Assembly: GCA_015062245.1 (NCBI GenBank)
Contig: SUVA01000006.1
Location: 1,753-65,752 of the forward strand
Direction: 5' to 3'
Length of the DNA: 64,000 nucleotides
From: Alphaproteobacteria bacterium
GTDB taxonomy: Bacteria; Pseudomonadota; Alphaproteobacteria; CAAHEQ01; UBA3637
In this document: piece after piece, positions 12,000 through 50,114 of the stretch
Numbering within the stretch: the stretch's first letter is position 1
How the letters are laid out: each line of letters starts with the position of its first letter
Position numbers and translations under genes: made by a program
The notes under the pieces: model-generated
Told to the model about the DNA's origin: nothing
Database searches by the model: none
The model's input: the letters and a program-made list of their open reading frames with translations, nothing else

Positions 12000-12785
12000 T
12001 TATTTTGTTTTTCTTTTTAATGCCATTGCAACAAACGGGCAAAATTGTTTTTTCTTGTCAAAAACGTTTGTTTTTGATATTTTTCCCGTATCATCAATGG
12101 TGGCATATTCTATACTGCTTATCGGTAAGTTTTCTTTGCCTGTGTATTTTAAAGCTATACCATTGGTCAGGACGCTTTGTTGCATAAAACGATTATAATC
12201 CTGTTTGAAATCGGGATTGTTTTGACACAAATAATCGGTTAAAGTTTGGAAAAATACGGCATCGGCACATCCTTGACAGGGATTGCCCCCTTCTTTTCGT
12301 ATGAAATTTTGTTGCATTGTCGGGGCAAAGTGGCTGGCACCTTTGATTGTTAAACAGATATCATCATTTTCTTTTTTTAATTGAATGGATTGAATGCTGG
12401 TTAAAAGACTTTCATTTGACGGTAATTGAATGTTCAGATTTTGCATTTTTTTATTAATAAAATCTTGATGTTTTGCAAATAAATCGCATAACCCCGGTGC
12501 ACATTCCACATCTGCTTGCCACAACGGATAAGTAATTTTTTCTTTTTCTGTATCAATCCCCACAATGATGGCTTCTTTCAACATTTGTTGAAAATTTAAA
12601 AATTGAATATGGTTTTCGGCCAGATTTTCATTTGACCAAACATAAAATCCATTTGCCTGTCCACCAATACCTTGACCGATGGGTTTTGCACCTTCTTTAA
12701 AAAATGATTTAAAATCATCGGGATTTGTTCCGACATGGTAAAAACGGACGCTTTGTTTTTGTTCTAATGTTTTTTGAAGGGTCAT
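12000..12785 (-). CDS. Orphan protein, paralog of 48464..49243; possible ADP-ribosyltransferase fold
   Basis: Shares FYH, DFKSFF[KR]EGAK, GFYVWSN, KYTGK and CPF with 48464..49243; SD GGAGG upstream; fold is inference. Confidence 0.7.
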   Translation of the reverse strand: MTLQKTLEQKQSVRFYHVGTNPDDFKSFFKEGAKPIGQGIGGQANGFYVWSNENLAENHIQFLNFQQMLKEAIIVGIDTEKEKITYPLWQADVECAPGLCDLFAKHQDFINKKMQNLNIQLPSNESLLTSIQSIQLKKENDDICLTIKGASHFAPTMQQNFIRKEGGNPCQGCADAVFFQTLTDYLCQNNPDFKQDYNRFMQQSVLTNGIALKYTGKENLPISSIEYATIDDTGKISKTNVFDKKKQFCPFVAMALKRKTK

Positions 12786-12891: not shown

Positions 12892-14262
12892 ATGCGTATT
12901 TTAATTGCAGGTGCCGGTGAAACAGGGATTGCTTTGGCCCGATATTTAAGGGCCGAAAATCATGAAATTGTTATGATAGATAAAAATCCGGATGCTTTGG
13001 AAGGTGTTAGTGAACAGCTGGATATTCAAACGCTGACGGGTTCATGTGATTCGCCTTTGATCTTGGAGAGGGCAGGTGCCGACAGTGTTGATATTTTGTT
13101 GGCAATGACAGGTGATGACCAAAGTAATATCATTGCCTGTTCTTTGGCAAAAGAATTGTTTCGGGTTTCCAAAAGAATTGCACGGGTTTCGTCAAATGAT
13201 TATTTAATGCCGAAATATTCTAATTTTTTAAAGGCGTTATCGGTTGATGTTGTTGTATCACCTGAAGTTGAAACAGCAAATCAGATTTTAACGGCTTTAT
13301 CTATCAACGGTGCTACTGATATGACAATATTGGGCCGTGGTTTGGTGCGTTTTTTGGGATTGAAGTGTCGTTCGGATATTCCTTTGTTGGGAAAAACATT
13401 ATCACAATTGAAACGCCAATTGGAGGAATTAAATATATCCGTTGTGGCGGTTGTTCGCCGGCATCAATTGATGGATTTGAAAAAAGTAACCTTACAAGTA
13501 GGTGATGAAGTTTATTTCTTTGTTGATACGGTTCATTTGCCGTATTCATTGGATTTATTCGGTTGTTCGGAAATGTCGTTGGATTATGTTTTGATGTATG
13601 GTGGGGGTTCAGTTGGTTTTCAAACGGCCAAAGCCTTGGAAAACGATTCAGATGACAGCCAAATCACCCTGTTAGAACGAGATAAAACCAGGGCCGGCTT
13701 TTTGGCGGAACACTTGAAAAGAACTTTGGTGATTCATGGGGACGGTTTTGATGATACGGTTTTGGATGATTTGGATTTGCGTGCCAATCAGGTCAGTATT
13801 GCCACCACTCAATCCGATGAAAACAATGTATTGTTATCTTTGATTGCCAAGCGTGCCGGAGTGCGTCGCACATGTGCTTTGGTCAGAAATACCCTTTATA
13901 AACAGTATTTGCGTGGATTAGGGGTTGATATTTTAATCAATCCGAATGCGGTGATGGTGTCGGCTGTTTTGCAATGCTTAAGAAAGGGGCGCCTGCAAAA
14001 CGATTACTTTTTGCAATCGGGTATGGGTGAAGTTTTGGAAATAGAAGCATTAAAAACTTCCCGTATCACCAGCTTGCCTTTTGAAAGGTTAAAAATTCCA
14101 AATGGTGTTCAAATCGGCGGCGTTTTGCGTAAAGGTAAATTTATTCGTCTGCATAAAGGATTTCGTGTAATGGAAGGCGATAAGGTTTATGTTTTTGTAC
14201 AACGTGGTCAGGTGGCCCGTGCCGAAAAATTATTTACGGTGAGGTTGGCATTTTTTACATGA
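12892..14262 (+). CDS. trkA: Trk potassium uptake NAD-binding subunit
   Basis: Two RCK units (IAGAGETG, GGGSVG); ATG 12892 follows AAGGAGG. Confidence 0.93.
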   Translation: MRILIAGAGETGIALARYLRAENHEIVMIDKNPDALEGVSEQLDIQTLTGSCDSPLILERAGADSVDILLAMTGDDQSNIIACSLAKELFRVSKRIARVSSNDYLMPKYSNFLKALSVDVVVSPEVETANQILTALSINGATDMTILGRGLVRFLGLKCRSDIPLLGKTLSQLKRQLEELNISVVAVVRRHQLMDLKKVTLQVGDEVYFFVDTVHLPYSLDLFGCSEMSLDYVLMYGGGSVGFQTAKALENDSDDSQITLLERDKTRAGFLAEHLKRTLVIHGDGFDDTVLDDLDLRANQVSIATTQSDENNVLLSLIAKRAGVRRTCALVRNTLYKQYLRGLGVDILINPNAVMVSAVLQCLRKGRLQNDYFLQSGMGEVLEIEALKTSRITSLPFERLKIPNGVQIGGVLRKGKFIRLHKGFRVMEGDKVYVFVQRGQVARAEKLFTVRLAFFT

Positions 14263-44738: not shown

Positions 44739-44793
44739 AAGATTTTCTTTGCAAAATTTTTAAAATTGATTATATTTAGTTTTGGGAGATAAG

Positions 44794-46839
44794 ATGAATT
44801 TAGAAATTTTACCGGGCTTGCCGTATCCTTTGGGGGCAAATTTTGATGGAAATGGTGTGAATTTTGCGCTGTTTTCAAAAAATGCGACCCGTGTTCAGCT
44901 ATGCTTATTTGATGCGGACGGTAAAAACGAAAAACGAATCGATTTGCCCCGTTATACGGATGAGGTTTGGCATGGTTATATAAAAGGATTGCGCTGGGGG
45001 CAAAGGTATGCCTATCGTGTTTATGGTCCTTATGAACCCGAAAAGGGATTTCGGTTTAACCCGAACAAGCTTTTGCTGGATCCGTATGCCAAAAAATTGA
45101 CAGGTCCCATTAAAGCGCACAATTCTCAATTGGGGTATAATTTGAAATCGCCAAAATCAGATTTATCATTTTCAAAAATAGATGATGCCAATTATGTTCC
45201 CAAATGTGTCGTTGTGGATGATAATTACTTTCAATGGAATAATTCTCAAAAACCCAAACATAATTGGGATGAAGAGGTTATTTATGAAATGCATGTTAAA
45301 GGTTTTACGGCCTTAAATCCAGATGTGGACAAAGCTTTTCGTGGAACTTTTAAGGGTCTGTCCCAACAAAAGGTGATTGATTATTTGAAATCTCTGCGTA
45401 TTTCTGCGGTTGAATTGCTGCCTATTGCAACTTTTATGACACCAGGGCATTTGGCCCCAAAAGGATTAACAAATTATTGGGGATATGACCCTGTTTTATT
45501 TATGTGTCCATATACTCCTTATATGTTTAACGGTAGTACGTCTGAATTAAAAAAAGCCGTATATACTTTGCACGAAGCGGGGATAGAGGTTATTTTGGAT
45601 GTTGTGTTTAATCATACCGCCGAAGGAAATCAATTGGGGCCGACACTTTGTTATCGTGGAATTGATAACGCCGTTTATTACAGGTTAAATCCTCAAAATA
45701 ATCGTTATTATGAAGATACCACCGGTTGTGGCGCCAGTTTCAATTTGGGTCATCCAAGGGTTTTACAATTGGTAATGGATTCGCTTCGTTATTGGGCGGA
45801 AAATATGCAAATAGACGGCTTTCGTTTTGATTTGGCAACCACTTTGGCCCGTGATGATGAAAATACATTTACACGTAATAGTGATTTTTTGGGTGTTGTT
45901 CAACAAGATCCCGTTTTGCAACGTCTAAAGTTGATTGCTGAACCTTGGGATTTAGGTAATGGCGGATATCAGGTTGGTAAGTTCAGACCCGGTTGGGCCG
46001 AATGGAATGATAAATTTCGTGATACGGTGCGTCGTTTTTGGCGTGGGGATGAAGGTATGGCCGGTGATTTTGCCCAACGTATGACAGGGTCGGCTGATTT
46101 ATATCAACAAAACGGTCGCAAACCATGGGAATCAATCAATTTTATTACAGCGCATGATGGTTTTTCTTTGGCGGATTTGGTCAGTTATAATAATAAGCAT
46201 AACGAACAAAATAAAGAAGAAAATCGTGATGGTACAGATGCAAATTATTCGTGGAACAGTGGTCTGGAAGGTCAAACAGATAATCCCGAGATTTTATTGA
46301 ATCGTGATAGGCGCGCCCGTTCCATGATGGCATCTTTATTGTTGTCTTTTGGGACACCTATGCTTTGTGCGGGTGATGAAATAATGCAATCGCATCAAGG
46401 AAACAACAATTTATATGCTCAGGATAATAAGCTATCTTGGATTGATTGGAAAAATATTTCTTCGGCCGGTCAAAGTATGTTGGATTTTACCCGTCAATTG
46501 ATGGTGTTTCGCCGTTCACATCCGATTATGTCCTATTATGATTTTTTTAAATCTGAAAAATTGGAATGGTTTAAGCCGAATGGTCAGGAAATGCAAGGCG
46601 AAGATTGGGCATTTTATGTCAAGAGTCTTTCTTATCGTATTCGCCAAAAAACGGGTGATTTATTCTTTGTTTTTAACGCGTATCAGGCGGATATTGAATG
46701 GCAATTACCCAAAAATAAAAAGGGATTTCATTGGGAGTTGGCATTGAACAGCACATTAGAACCGATTGAAATAAGCGATAAAAAAGCCAAGATTCCGGCT
46801 TGGAGTGTAGTTGTTTTTGAAGAAATTAAAGAAAAATAA
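44794..46839 (+). CDS. glgX: Glycogen debranching enzyme
   Basis: NYWGY, DVVFNHTAEG, DGFRFDLA, AEPWD, AHDGF. Confidence 0.96.
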   Translation: MNLEILPGLPYPLGANFDGNGVNFALFSKNATRVQLCLFDADGKNEKRIDLPRYTDEVWHGYIKGLRWGQRYAYRVYGPYEPEKGFRFNPNKLLLDPYAKKLTGPIKAHNSQLGYNLKSPKSDLSFSKIDDANYVPKCVVVDDNYFQWNNSQKPKHNWDEEVIYEMHVKGFTALNPDVDKAFRGTFKGLSQQKVIDYLKSLRISAVELLPIATFMTPGHLAPKGLTNYWGYDPVLFMCPYTPYMFNGSTSELKKAVYTLHEAGIEVILDVVFNHTAEGNQLGPTLCYRGIDNAVYYRLNPQNNRYYEDTTGCGASFNLGHPRVLQLVMDSLRYWAENMQIDGFRFDLATTLARDDENTFTRNSDFLGVVQQDPVLQRLKLIAEPWDLGNGGYQVGKFRPGWAEWNDKFRDTVRRFWRGDEGMAGDFAQRMTGSADLYQQNGRKPWESINFITAHDGFSLADLVSYNNKHNEQNKEENRDGTDANYSWNSGLEGQTDNPEILLNRDRRARSMMASLLLSFGTPMLCAGDEIMQSHQGNNNLYAQDNKLSWIDWKNISSAGQSMLDFTRQLMVFRRSHPIMSYYDFFKSEKLEWFKPNGQEMQGEDWAFYVKSLSYRIRQKTGDLFFVFNAYQADIEWQLPKNKKGFHWELALNSTLEPIEISDKKAKIPAWSVVVFEEIKEK

Positions 46840-46858
46840 AAAAAATATAAAAAAATGA

Positions 46859-46887
46859 TTGACATTCTAAAATACATATCGTATAAT
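46859..46887 (+). promoter_or_regulatory. Promoter of tRNA-Lys
   Basis: TTGACA-17 nt-TATAAT. Confidence 0.8.
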
Positions 46888-46897
46888 ACTTGCTATT

Positions 46898-46973
46898 GAG
46901 TGCGTAGCTCAGCTGGTAGAGCACCTGACTTTTAATCAGGTGGCCGAGGGTTCGAATCCCTCCGCGCTCACCA
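46898..46973 (+). tRNA. tRNA-Lys (anticodon TTT)
   Basis: 76-nt cloverleaf; cctga-cttttaa-tcagg anticodon arm, GGTTCGAATCC T arm, CCA end. Confidence 0.97.
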
Positions 46974-47109
46974 CTTATAAGTCCTTGTTTTTCAAGGACT
47001 TTTCTTATGCTTGGTATGCGAGCTTGGTTACGCCCCATCTTCCAAAAAGCCCTTTAATTCCATGCACTTATAAAATTAGATTGCATGCAAAATCTATACC
47101 CTAAAGCCC

Positions 47110-47141
47110 TGTGATGCAAAGTGTGATGCAACTGTGATGCA
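47110..47141 (+). repeat. Three direct TGTGATGCA repeats (candidate integrase arm sites)
   Basis: At 47110, 47122 and 47133; variants at 48057 and 48068. Confidence 0.75.
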
Positions 47142-47180
47142 CATTCTACCTCGTAAGTCATTTTAGTTATATTTTACAAT

Positions 47181-47215
47181 AAATAAAAAATAACCTCACA
47201 AAAAGTGAGGTTATT
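47181..47215 (-). terminator. Terminator of the cassette-1 gene
   Basis: aataacctcac-aaaaa-gtgaggttatt with a T run on the minus strand. Confidence 0.75.
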
Positions 47216-47233
47216 AAAAGATATAAATTCTTA

Positions 47234-47953
47234 TTAACGTTCAGAACCAGACCTTTGTTTCAAAAGACGTGGTGTTTTATTAGCCGCCGCAGAAAGGAGA
47301 GATTTAAGTCCTGTCTTTACTACAACTTTTCCATCAGAATCATCCTCATAGACTGTAACCTTACCTTCTGCATCTTTCACTAAAGTCCGTCCTGGACGCC
47401 CCATTGTATCAAATGCAGAATGTTCTTTAATCTCCATTACTTTTCCTGCATTATCTTTGTGAATTTCACTAATAATATATCCCTTTTCGTCATACCCTAA
47501 TTCAATACTTTTTACTGTTCTACCAATCCCATCCTTTATAATTGTTTTTATAGCGTTTCCATTTTCATCAAACGTGTCTTCAAAGATTGATGTTATATTG
47601 CCATTTTCATCCTTCTTGAATTCAGTATCTCCTAGTAGTTTACCATTAGCATCTTTATGATTAATTAGTCTAACACTTGGGTCTTCATTTGCAGTTCCAT
47701 CTTCATTAAGGATATATTCATCAGTACCTACTACTTTACCATCTGCATCCTTTATGATTACAGCAGTATTATTTCCTTTTTCATCAAAGATCCATTCCTC
47801 TGTACTTGTTACTTTACCATTCGCATCTTTAAAAGACTGAATACCTTTTCCTGTTTTTTCATCAAATCTCTGCTCCACAGTGGATAATACTTTCCCTGTT
47901 TCATCTCGTTCAAATATTGTCTTACCTTCTTTGAAATATTGTATAACTTTCAT
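47234..47953 (-). CDS. Orphan beta-hairpin repeat protein (YD/RHS-like repeats)
   Basis: Repeated KD[AG]xG[KR]V...[FY]DE[KN]G units; tail RLLKQRSGSER. Confidence 0.75.
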   Translation of the reverse strand: MKVIQYFKEGKTIFERDETGKVLSTVEQRFDEKTGKGIQSFKDANGKVTSTEEWIFDEKGNNTAVIIKDADGKVVGTDEYILNEDGTANEDPSVRLINHKDANGKLLGDTEFKKDENGNITSIFEDTFDENGNAIKTIIKDGIGRTVKSIELGYDEKGYIISEIHKDNAGKVMEIKEHSAFDTMGRPGRTLVKDAEGKVTVYEDDSDGKVVVKTGLKSLLSAAANKTPRLLKQRSGSER

Positions 47954-48128
47954 ATATTTTCCTTTCTTTGATATTTGACCTCAAACAACTATATTTAACA
48001 TAAACCAACGATAAAATCAAGCACTTTTTTTCATATTTTTCTTAATATATAAAAACTGTGATGCGAGTGCGATGCAAAATGGTGTAAATATTTCAAATAA
48101 CATATTGAAAATAAACGATTATTTTATC

Positions 48129-48153
48129 GGTTGGAGTCCCTCCGCGCTCACCA
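48129..48153 (+). repeat. Duplicated tRNA-Lys 3' end (attR-like)
   Basis: ggttggagtccctccgcgctcacca versus ggttcgaatccctccgcgctcacca. Confidence 0.9.
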
Positions 48154-48463
48154 TTTTGAACAAGTCGTCTGAAAAGGCGACTTGTTCAATTCCAACATCA
48201 ATTCATTCTGCGTTACCACTTGAATTCATTGTGTTTCATTGCTTTACGCATAAAAATTGTCCACTGGACACTTTTTATTTTGCGCAGTTTATTTACAAGC
48301 GTTTAAGCCGGTTCGATTGGACTCAACACAAAAAGCGCCTATTTTCATCAACAATCGAACTCACAATCACGAAAGTACTTGATTTTATTATATTTTATGT
48401 TTTTTGATGCTGTTTAGACGGCCCATCCTACATTCGAATTTTTAAGCTACTTTTATAGGTAAT

Positions 48464-49243
48464 TTACCGCTGTAGATTTTTTAATTTCAAAAAAGGACAA
48501 ACTTGTTGGCTCCCTTTTTCTTTATCCCATAAAACAGTTTGCTTTAAATGATCCTTTTCATCCACTAAAACATGTGTTGCTGATGTGATGGTTAAAGGTT
48601 TTTTTCCAGTATATTTAAAGGCATTTCCCTTTTGATAAGTTGTTTGCATTAATTGAGAATAATCCTCTTTAAATTGAGGGTTGGTATTGCATAATACATC
48701 TACAAGAGTTTGCCATAAAACAGCTTCTGATGCTGGATGAATAGGACTATACTTTTTATAATGGGTAAGTACAAGAGGAAAATCTGAATTAAAAGATGTT
48801 TTCCCCTTAAACTGAAAAATCGTTTTGTCTTCTTCTTTTTGACATGAAATTTCACATATTTTTTTCAAAAATAATTCATTATTGTGCAAGGTAATATTCA
48901 AATTTTTTAAATTTTGATTGATAAAATTATCATATTGATCGAATAACTCAAATAATCCCATGGCATATTCCACATCTATCTGCCATATAGGATATTTCAG
49001 AGATTCTTTCGGAACACTGATTCCCAGAATCAATGCTTCACGTTGGGATAAAGATTTATTTAAAAATCCGGAATTTAACAAATGGATATGGTTTTTAGCC
49101 AAAGTCTTATTTGACCACACATAAAATCCTTTGGCATCAGCATTAGATAAGGTCGTTTTGGCTCCTTCGCGAAAGAATGATTTAAAATCGTTTGTATCTG
49201 TTGCGATGTGATAAAAAGTTATAAATTTATTTTTTAGAGCCAT
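48464..49243 (-). CDS. Orphan protein, paralog of 12000..12785; possible ADP-ribosyltransferase fold
   Basis: Full-length motif conservation with 12000..12785; own promoter at 49262-49290. Confidence 0.72.
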   Translation of the reverse strand: MALKNKFITFYHIATDTNDFKSFFREGAKTTLSNADAKGFYVWSNKTLAKNHIHLLNSGFLNKSLSQREALILGISVPKESLKYPIWQIDVEYAMGLFELFDQYDNFINQNLKNLNITLHNNELFLKKICEISCQKEEDKTIFQFKGKTSFNSDFPLVLTHYKKYSPIHPASEAVLWQTLVDVLCNTNPQFKEDYSQLMQTTYQKGNAFKYTGKKPLTITSATHVLVDEKDHLKQTVLWDKEKGSQQVCPFLKLKNLQR

Positions 49244-49261
49244 TTTTATCCTTTTTCATGT

Positions 49262-49290
49262 ATTATATATGATGTATAAATCTATGTCAA
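49262..49290 (-). promoter_or_regulatory. Promoter of the cassette-2 gene
   Basis: TTGACA-17 nt-TATAAT on the minus strand. Confidence 0.78.
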
Positions 49291-49334
49291 CTTATTTAGC
49301 TCGCGTTCGGCAAGATACCCCTCACCATTTTTTT

Positions 49335-49359
49335 AAGCCGTCCGAAAGGGCGGTTTTTT
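49335..49359 (+). terminator. Intrinsic terminator
   Basis: aagccgtcc-gaaa-gggcggttt followed by a T run. Confidence 0.75.
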
Positions 49360-49389
49360 GCTATAAGGTTTTAGATTTAATTTTTTTAA

Positions 49390-49418
49390 TTGCCTTTTAA
49401 AAGATTTTGTTTTATAAT
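49390..49418 (+). promoter_or_regulatory. Promoter of the structured leader and SLOG gene
   Basis: TTGCCT-17 nt-TATAAT. Confidence 0.7.
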
Positions 49419-49424
49419 GTATTT

Positions 49425-49673
49425 GCTTGGGTGCAATGCCCCTCAAGCTAGGATTTAGTACTCCGATTAGTTGCAAGGGCAGAAATAAATTCTGTCGGCA
49501 TCCGCCATGGGATACGCCGAAAGAGTGTATTAGTTCATGGGTGGATGCCTGCCGAATAAGGTATCCACCCCAATAAGGCAGGACTATTTCTCTTGTGACT
49601 AATAGGTACTAACATCCACCCACCTGAATAAGGTGGGCGAAATGTTAAATAGAACAAAAAAAAGGGGTGGATG
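49425..49673 (+). ncRNA. Highly structured leader RNA of unknown class
   Basis: Long stem 49455-49489 with 49586-49612; GGGTGGATG at 49539 and 49665 with complements at 49497, 49563 and 49613. Confidence 0.55.
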
Positions 49674-50114
49674 ATGGGCAAAAAATGTGCTTTTTTCGGA
49701 CATAGAGATTTGTGCGGAAAATCAGATGAAATTATTCCAAAATTACAAAAAGCAATGATTGATTTAATTCATCAGGGGGTGGATGTTTTTTATGTCGGAA
49801 ATCATGGGGAATTTGATATTCTGTGTTCAAAAATTGCCCGTGATTTAAAAACAATTTATCCTGAAATTCAAGTGATAGCGGTCCTTTGTTATCCAAATGA
49901 ATTGCAATACCTAAAATGTCAATTTACGGATTTTTTGATGCCTTTGGAAATTGAATCAGCCCCCAAACGGGCCTGTATTATCAAACGCAATCAATGGGTG
50001 ATAAAAAATAGCGATTACATAATATCTTATACCCGATACAAAATCGGCGGTGCATATCAGGCCATTCAATACGCCAAAAAAAATCATAAAAACGTAATGC
50101 AAATATCCACTTAA
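49671..50114 (+). CDS. SLOG superfamily protein (YspA/DUF1273-like)
   Basis: CAFFGHR, FYVGNHGEFD, IIKRNQWVIKNSDYIISY, GGAYQAIQYA. Confidence 0.78.
   Translation: MMGKKCAFFGHRDLCGKSDEIIPKLQKAMIDLIHQGVDVFYVGNHGEFDILCSKIARDLKTIYPEIQVIAVLCYPNELQYLKCQFTDFLMPLEIESAPKRACIIKRNQWVIKNSDYIISYTRYKIGGAYQAIQYAKKNHKNVMQIST

Follow-up and report, generated by a model that had tools for sequence, protein, structure and literature searches.

Immediately downstream of a tRNA-Lys(UUU) gene, in a 64,000-nucleotide stretch of an Alphaproteobacteria bacterium contig (SUVA01000006.1; the whole stretch is referred to here as the window), lie two adjacent intervals of nearly equal size, each of which holds a single minus-strand gene and ends in a short repeat of the tRNA 3' end. 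Where does this DNA come from, and by what route could it have been placed there? A preliminary description of the locus had proposed the serial acquisition of minimal cargo cassettes at the tRNA gene, mobilised in trans and resembling an integron-like array. The gene order in this region is GlgB, an HD protein, GlgX (44782-46839), tRNA-Lys(UUU) (46898-46973, plus strand), an open reading frame (ORF) of 239 aa and one of 259 aa, both on the minus strand, a SLOG/YpsA-like gene, PolA and, adjoining it, GcrA. The host DNA is AT-rich, with a local G+C content of about 25-42%.

The most direct answer comes from a relative, L077 (NCBI assembly GCA_045631185.1, 153-kb contig; L numbers designate the related loci or contigs that were compared with the window). 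Its flanks are 81-88% identical to those of the window at the nucleotide level and its gene order is the same (GlgB-HD-GlgX-tRNA-Lys, then SLOG-PolA-GcrA), with two extra genes. In L077, the tRNA ends in CTCACCA and is followed at once by tttttttaagccgtccgaaagggcgg / tttttttaagccgtccgaaagggcggttttttgctataagg, which corresponds to the window from 49328 onward. The L077 sequence aligns to window positions 44739-46976 and then to 49321-50081, the 10 nucleotides CTCACCAttt being common to both alignments (46967 and 49321). As judged from this alignment, window positions 46974-49327 (2354 nt, i.e. 1180 + 1174) are an insertion between the CCA end of tRNA-Lys and the native terminator of that gene, and the claim that both intervals are acquired DNA is borne out by an exact empty site. 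Because the L077 site is empty exactly there, the CTCACCA at 49321-49327 is the true right junction. The T run and hairpin beyond it (aagccgtccgaaagggcggttt, 49328-49356, plus strand, hairpin at 49335-49356), which stand directly 3' of the tRNA in L077, are the native tRNA-Lys terminator, displaced by 2354 nt. On the evidence of the same empty site, the hairpin at 49335-49356 does not belong to a cassette. The pair of empty and occupied sites supplies exact junctions.

Within the window, the repeats agree with these junctions. The last seven nucleotides of the tRNA gene, CTCACCA at 46967-46973, form the left junction (attL). The tRNA 3' end is repeated at 48129-48156 with 25 of 28 positions identical (23 of 25 over 48129-48153) and 17 consecutive nucleotides exact (TCCCTCCGCGCTCACCA), as the preliminary description had noted for the shorter span; a search with this 17-mer, allowing up to three mismatches, found only these two sites in the 64 kb, and none of 100 shuffled sequences yielded two copies. 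CTCACCA occurs again at 49321-49327, and the only three plus-strand copies in the 64 kb are all at the boundaries. The junction spacings are exactly 1180 and 1174 nt, with one minus-strand ORF in each interval (47234-47953, 239 aa; 48464-49243, 259 aa), as had been reported. A T run and a hairpin follow both downstream copies, and the earlier count of 17 identical positions out of 22 between the two hairpins holds; among the differences are a compensatory pair (T-A to C-G) and a single wobble change. Could the 7-mers and the likeness of the hairpins be coincidental, and the region be ordinary intergenic DNA plus genes? The 7-mer alone is marginal, since about 1.6 plus-strand copies are expected by chance per window and about 0.06 per 2.4 kb, so that a copy within such a distance would arise about 6% of the time. 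The L077 empty site refutes this explanation, and the exact 17-nt repeat and the recurrence of the right-end motif at the boundaries of other loci, described below, are further against it; we give it practically no credence.

We refer to positions 46974-48153 as unit A and to 48154-49327 as unit B. Unit A opens with a left arm of about 170 nt (c1L, 46974-47145, plus strand). Within it are a terminator hairpin (46979-47001) and, at 47110-47141, three copies of the repeat TGTGATGCA, which are candidate arm-type sites for an integrase. The c1L arm is 81-85% conserved in L036, L044 and L054, and the homology stops just past the repeats, where the cargo starts. Right-arm repeats (TGTGATGCG and GTGCGATGCA, 48053-48077, plus strand) have the same orientation as those of the left arm and are conserved in L036, with one copy in L044. 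The unit closes with the copy of the tRNA-Lys 3' end, from T-loop to CCA (48129-48153, plus strand, 23 of 25 identical, the last 17 exact), which is at once the A/B junction and the attR of A. Unit B opens with a T run and hairpin (aacaagtcgtctgaaaaggcgacttgtt, 48154-48190, plus strand; hereafter hp) that recurs in relatives and lies directly 3' of an intact tRNA-Lys in L017, L029, L032, L044, L048 and L054. In both units, the left end places a hairpin directly behind the tRNA; that of unit A scores as a terminator, and the window hp does not. A 97-nt stretch present only in the window (48191-48287, with a small palindrome at 48258-48270) separates hp from a conserved non-coding module, M2 (48288-48463, plus strand); elsewhere M2 mostly abuts hp. 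The stop codon of the cargo gene abuts M2, and hp is thus located beyond M2, downstream of that stop codon. Unit B closes with a motif of 22 nt (GCTCGCGTTCGGCAAGATACCC; AGCTCGCGTTnnGCAAGnnAnCC), which we call type B, followed by CTCACCA (together 49299-49327, plus strand), which form both the right end of B and the right junction of the whole insertion.

The type B motif changes the reading of the third repeat, which had been taken for a more eroded tRNA end: it is not one, because this distinct 22-nt motif, which recurs at boundaries, precedes CTCACCA there. Type B is single-copy in the window and is found at boundaries in 11 related loci, L016 (two copies), L017, L018, L021, L035/L075, L036, L044, L045, L054 and L074. 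We also considered type B itself as an eroded tRNA 3' half and rejected this, as agreement is limited to GTTCG and the final 7 nt, and the copies resemble each other far more than any tRNA. Identity among relatives is 84-100% for type B and 76-88% for M2. Conservation of the non-coding ends is therefore no lower than that of the coding flanks (77% to L044), which points to ends that are functional and under selection or that have spread recently.

Related loci were gathered by a scan of metagenome contigs for the hairpin-junction pattern, by exact-protein look-ups and through integrase homologues. In 15 related metagenome loci, the same unit ends enclose differing cargo (a serpin, GNAT, a tRNA-binding protein, or none); the cargo of relatives includes GNAT, tRNA_bind, serpin, a MORN-repeat protein, Nudix, an alpha/beta hydrolase and unknowns. 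Across 17 loci, homology between contexts always breaks at CTCACCA (CACCA for tRNA-Glu), the only sequence common to every junction. To the left of the junctions stand an intact tRNA-Lys (in four sequence variants), tRNA-Glu, a 46-nt tRNA half, short tRNA 3' copies or type B; to the right stand hp with M2, c1L, four different native terminators or the arm of an integrase island. All copies of the family sit at tRNA-linked arrays.

The arrangements, in which successive parts meet at a CTCACCA junction, vary widely. In L044 and L054, tRNA-Lys is followed by B and then by the left arm of A, the opposite of the order tRNA, A, B seen in the window and in L036; both are at the same GlgX-tRNA-Lys locus, the core identity of L044 to the window being 77%. 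L036 has an integrase island, a 46-nt tRNA half, an A unit (575 nt, no ORF of at least 70 aa), a B unit with a gene for a 228-aa Cys-rich protein, and another terminator. L017 and L048 have tRNA-Lys, a B unit of 503 nt with a gene remnant, and the arm of an integrase island; L018 is like L017, except that a further B-type end replaces the tRNA, and the polymorphism between L017 and L018 falls exactly at CTCACCA. L016 consists of an A'-type end, a B unit with three small genes and a second B unit with a homologue of the 259-aa gene, and L045 of tRNA-Lys, a 201-nt unit and a B unit with a serpin gene. In L021, a tRNA-Glu(UUC) gene (1492-1567 in locus coordinates) follows GlgX in place of tRNA-Lys, and after it come an identical hp, a B unit with a homologue of the 259-aa gene, a terminator and RuvC. 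L074 and L075 have an integrase island and then one or two units. The interior of unit A is the 239-aa gene in the window, about 300 nt without an ORF of at least 70 aa in L036, and 4.4 kb with six genes and no integrase in L044. B units measure 503-1832 nt and carry the 259-aa gene, GNAT, tRNA_bind, serpin, unknowns or gene remnants, with a recombinase in 0 of 12 distinct units. Fixation of the locus among relatives had been named as a check on serial acquisition: the locus is not fixed, and unit content, order and size all vary. The near-equal sizes of the two window units are a coincidence, because the length of homologous units varies between 201 nt and more than 4.6 kb; the preliminary description had allowed for this.

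Two ways of generating such variation have to be weighed here. In the first, hp with M2, c1L and type B would be fixed landmarks between which RecA, without any site-specific recombinase, swaps cargo once DNA has been taken up or transduced. Variable cargo does lie between conserved ends of 100-300 nt, and the window and L036 share the A-B adjacency and a 100% identical type B while both of their cargos differ. Moreover, in L045 (reverse complement, 9570 and 11267) and L074 (reverse complement, 11524 and 12993), a copy of the native terminator hairpin stands at each end of a two-unit insertion, which suggests that the incoming DNA carried flanking sequence of a similar donor locus. However, the window and L077 have no more than 7-10 nt in common where the 2354-nt insertion begins and ends, too little for RecA, the breaks fall at one fixed 7-mer in all contexts, and integrase islands use the same site. 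We consider a purely homology-driven hotspot quite improbable. In the second, towards which we lean with modest confidence, positions 46974-49327 arose by tandem accretion of two non-autonomous elements, similar to cis-mobilizable elements (CIMEs), at the attB of the tRNA-Lys 3' end. Precise insertion, recurrent junctions, variable cargo within conserved ends, both unit orders and integrase islands at the same attB are, at the level of sequence comparison, features of this family of loci.

Under tandem accretion, units A and B would have been mobilised in trans, with integrases supplied from elsewhere, because neither unit nor the 64-kb window encodes one. In a first step, the B unit (hp, M2, the 259-aa gene and type B) would have recombined at tRNA-CTCACCA-terminator to give tRNA-CTCACCA-hp..type B-CTCACCA-native terminator. 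In a second, the A unit would have recombined with the regenerated tRNA end, pushing B outward and leaving the 17-nt exact repeat; this order of events is the one we infer. The attP of unit A would be the 25-nt tRNA copy, from T-loop to CCA, flanked by arms with TGTGATGCA repeats, and both exchanges would be conservative site-specific recombination events carried out by tyrosine integrases within or at CTCACCA.

Which enzymes could be involved? The preliminary description had remarked on a stack without an integrase. Within the window this is so: tblastn with three recombinases detected no tyrosine recombinase (best E 0.28), and none appears in the Pfam tables of the genes called between 37234 and 59243. 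Relatives do have them. In L035 and L036, a P4-like integrase of 442 aa, which combines an Arm-DNA-bind_3 with a Phage_integrase domain, is encoded directly by a 46-nt tRNA-Lys 3' half, and in L036 the integrase island abuts an A unit followed by a B unit. Homologues of this enzyme led to complete islands of 5.1 kb (L076), 6.2 kb (L075) and 7.9 kb (L074), bounded by an intact tRNA-Lys and the 46-nt 3' half, with the integrase gene beside the half-tRNA. Thus, the statement that tyrosine integrases duplicate tRNA 3' ends applies to this very gene, the 3' half of the same tRNA-Lys being duplicated by the islands of relatives; the window tRNA-Lys is 100% identical to that of L075 and L076, as well as to that of L044, L054 and L077. 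In L036 (reverse complement, 646-1314) and L076 (2935-3531), the gene of the P4-like integrase is followed, after a short gap, by that of another, smaller tyrosine recombinase of 198-222 aa, which has a Phage_integrase domain alone. The identity blocks at this tRNA are nested: 46 nt from the anticodon loop, 17-25 nt from the T-loop and 7 nt at the CCA end. Integrase subfamilies are known to use three tRNA sublocations, the anticodon loop, the T-loop and the asymmetric 3' end (10.1101/2020.11.02.365908), and the three blocks match these. Three element types thus use one tRNA-Lys at three nested positions.

The unit A architecture resembles the arms of these islands, with arm-like repeats kept at both ends and the 239-aa gene at the int position, and from its sequence unit A may derive from such an island by deletion; an integrase-bearing A-type element was not found among the relatives. 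This raises a further possibility, namely that both units are immobile deletion remnants of larger integrase islands that entered tRNA-Lys long ago, the ends of which were kept as terminators, promoters or untranslated regions (UTRs). Unit A shows a complete arm arrangement, the 239-aa gene taking the place that int has in L035, L036 and L074-L076; the divergence of the ends is similar to that of the core genome (77-85%), as vertical descent would allow; and decayed tandem elements at tRNA genes are common (PMC5704250; 10.1101/2020.12.28.424599). Nor is there polymorphism within the strain: its contigs, present in several JGI, ENA and Logan metagenomes, have the same arrangement in all 39 cases from many samples, at 99.8-100% identity across the locus. 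Against such fossils stand the occurrence of A and B in both orders at one locus, the difference between L017 and L018 exactly at the junction, and B units that adjoin tRNA-Glu (L021) and form B-B tandems (L016, L018, L074). In addition, 12 distinct B units keep both ends and never contain even a fragment of a recombinase, and repeated decay to the same minimal ends is unlikely. Taken together, we regard the view that both units are fossils as unlikely.

Besides the uniformity of the strain, several observations weigh against accretion by mobilisation in trans. Among the contigs of this species, neither a circular junction nor a strain lacking only one unit was found. The empty site belongs to another species, and a precise loss in L077 is therefore indistinguishable from a gain in the window. 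The conservation of M2 and type B could reflect a 3' UTR or promoter context rather than recombination, and hp with M2 lies directly 3' of tRNA-Lys in L017, L029, L032 and L048, which could be a native arrangement rather than the end of an element. Finally, the arm repeats of the integrase islands are ATACTACAA or TTGCTACA, as against TGTGATGCA in unit A. The enzyme cognate to unit A would therefore be another than those seen in these islands, and for B no such enzyme has come to light.

The ends of many short contigs of the same strain cluster at 46973-47109 and 49341-49593. This is a hint of graph branching and not proof of it; the clustering would fit an assembly graph that branches because relatives in the same samples have c1L or the leader described below in other contexts, the alternative being low coverage of AT-rich DNA.

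How do these units compare with known elements? CIMEs and site-specific accretion have been described for relatives of ICESt1/ICESt3, which are integrative and conjugative elements (ICEs), in Streptococcus thermophilus, and for tRNA-Lys composites in S. agalactiae (PMC5704250). As in CIMEs, attL and attR are kept, integration and transfer genes are absent, the units stand in tandem at the 3' end of the target gene, and integrase-bearing elements adjoin in L036. Direct repeats flank the units (17 nt exact or 25 nt for A, CTCACCA for B), and each has one ORF, which does not encode a recombinase. The differences are of size and of origin: units of the window type are far smaller (0.2-1.8 kb, with 0-3 genes), no conjugative element is in view, and B units share only 7 nt with the tRNA and have a 22-nt junction motif of their own. 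CIMEs are defined as decay products of ICEs or of integrative and mobilizable elements, and the B units of relatives hold no trace of recombinase genes. The tycheposon model of Prochlorococcus, in which islands grow by repeated integration at tRNA genes (10.1101/2020.12.28.424599), is close in other respects: each new arrival enters at the tRNA and displaces earlier elements outward, neighbours are separated by partial tRNA copies, and degenerate elements and cargo accumulate. Tycheposons are defined by an integrase of their own and often have replication genes, neither of which the present units possess; here, the junction motif is not derived from a tRNA and the host is an AT-rich gut or rumen alphaproteobacterium. 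Genomic islands that integrate at tRNA genes with P4-like tyrosine integrases (Islander-type; PMC4383910) likewise target the 3' part of the tRNA and leave a displaced fragment that marks their end, and arm-type repeats lie near both ends of unit A. An intact tRNA and a displaced fragment are present in the window; an island-encoded integrase is not, and is found in L035, L036, L074, L075 and L076, which are textbook cases at the same tRNA.

The likeness to an integron, on which the earlier proposal drew, is more limited. Short, mostly single-gene units are stacked, a non-coding module follows the cargo ORF, and newer units are proximal at one site. Unlike in integrons, intI, attI and Pc are all absent, the stack is anchored on a tRNA gene, neither M2 nor type B is related to attC, the orientation of cargo is mixed (plus strand in L036, L045 and L054), and the 259-aa gene has its own promoter, with all 12 of 12 consensus positions (49262-49290, minus strand, 9 nt from type B). 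An inspection of the junctions (tRNA 3' copy or type B, CTCACCA, hairpin, M2), for which no formal attC covariance model was run, revealed no attC-like architecture. With two different element types in the stack, an integron-like array does not describe the locus. What may be retained is a functional analogy: B units could form a family of miniature non-autonomous cassettes of 0.5-1.8 kb, mostly with one gene, that carry a recombination site of about 250 bp (type B, CTCACCA, hairpin, M2) and are captured and reshuffled at the CCA end of tRNA-Lys, occasionally of other tRNAs, by a recombinase encoded elsewhere in the genome. We put this forward tentatively and consider it rather unlikely. Elements without a recombinase that integrate site-specifically by means of an enzyme encoded elsewhere are known in general, and offer an analogy: integrative mobile elements exploiting Xer (IMEX) use host XerCD at dif. 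The difference is that there is no indication of a dif-like site or of Xer involvement here. Elements of the IS200/IS605 or miniature inverted-repeat transposable element type do not fit, as there are no terminal inverted repeats and the copies are confined to tRNA-linked arrays.

The class of element to which these units belong, tandem, decayed or minimal islands at tRNA genes, is thus already known; the B unit, with its own junction motif and only a 7-nt match to the tRNA, is from its sequence a new variant. On the whole, the preliminary description of the locus is largely right. Gene capture at a tRNA hotspot can operate with units of no more than one gene and without a linked recombinase. 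If B units are indeed mobilised in trans, they would constitute a cassette system distinct from integrons that exchanges accessory genes (serpin, acetyltransferases, unknowns) among Alphaproteobacteria of gut and rumen that have not been cultured. All these units would escape island finders that depend on an integrase.

Searches outside this clade yielded little. A scan of a genome-contig collection with the type B pattern gave two chance hits (a Planctomycetaceae and an Anaerolineae metagenome-assembled genome) and none in this clade. Scans of viral contigs for the hairpin junction, type B, the A-type attL and the arm repeats returned nothing or unrelated GC-rich hits, and the same scan with the tRNA-Lys 3' end returned an unrelated provirus of 60% GC, the tyrosine integrase of which is about 25% identical to the L036 enzyme. 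Searches of phage and plasmid collections with the locus by blastn gave no match.

The cargo genes differ in their relationships. Both had been called orphans. For the 239-aa protein of unit A (47234-47953, minus strand) this stands: among 5.8 billion proteins it matches itself and one marginal sequence (E 1e-3). It is made of beta-hairpin repeats of about 26 aa (78-nt repeats in the DNA), its AlphaFold2 model is all-beta with a predicted local distance difference test score (pLDDT) of 78.5, and comparison with Pfam gave sub-threshold matches only, MORN_2 included. An intrinsic terminator is predicted for this gene at 47189-47215 (minus strand) and no promoter was identified; the gene probably has its own transcription signals. 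For the 259-aa protein of unit B (48464-49243, minus strand) the claim fails, since it belongs to a clade-restricted family with homologues at 37-97% identity. Its AlphaFold2 prediction is an alpha/beta protein (pLDDT 84), and it has no Pfam match above threshold and no NCBIfam, PADLOC or PDB assignment; for both cargo proteins, sequence searches of NCBIfam, PADLOC and PDB gave nothing usable. A 261-aa paralogue of the 259-aa protein (42% identity) is encoded at 12000-12785 (minus strand), in an ordinary chromosomal context without junction motifs. In L077, a low-complexity ORF of 259 aa without a Pfam hit lies between SLOG and PolA (13075-13854 in locus coordinates); we considered it as a homologue of the window gene and rejected this, the two being unrelated proteins of equal length.

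The M2 module was aligned over 13 copies, with a mean column identity of 79%. Its 10-bp inverted repeat (GGTTCGATTG..N32..CAATCGAACT, window 48309-48360) is kept in the 12 other copies. When the stem was tested as a structured RNA, only wobble-type changes were seen across the 13 copies, with no compensatory changes or covariation; the inverted repeat could be a protein-binding site or a single-strand DNA hairpin. No Rfam family matched M2, type B or the leader of the SLOG gene. The tRNA-Lys gene itself has a consensus promoter (46859-46887, plus strand, TTGACA-17-TATAAT, 12 of 12 positions).

Beyond the native terminator, a promoter-like site (49390-49418) and a leader (49424-49672) precede the SLOG/YpsA-like gene (147 aa, 49671-50114), which overlaps PolA tail to tail in the window. 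This leader spans about 245 nt and its predicted fold is very stable (-97.9 kcal/mol, z = -6.2); it contains CC(N4-5)AATAAGG three times, may form a pseudoknot, and reaches 92% conservation in L077. In L015, too, a ccaccc/gggtgg-rich region stands before a SLOG gene, one of 34% identity. The leader is a candidate for a new cis-regulatory RNA or for an RNA partner of the SLOG protein. L068 encodes an identical SLOG protein and has 99.9% nucleotide identity from window position 49436 onward, with unrelated sequence upstream (L068 positions 1-95); as it diverges exactly where the leader RNA would begin, leader and SLOG gene may together be a movable unit. In L015 (4400-9610, overlapped by L016), a type II restriction-modification pair (RE_EcoO109I and DNA methylase) and a Hachiman system (HamA and helicase) lie by the SLOG module and an A'-type junction. 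As L015 holds these restriction-modification and Hachiman genes there, the hotspot is also a defence island.

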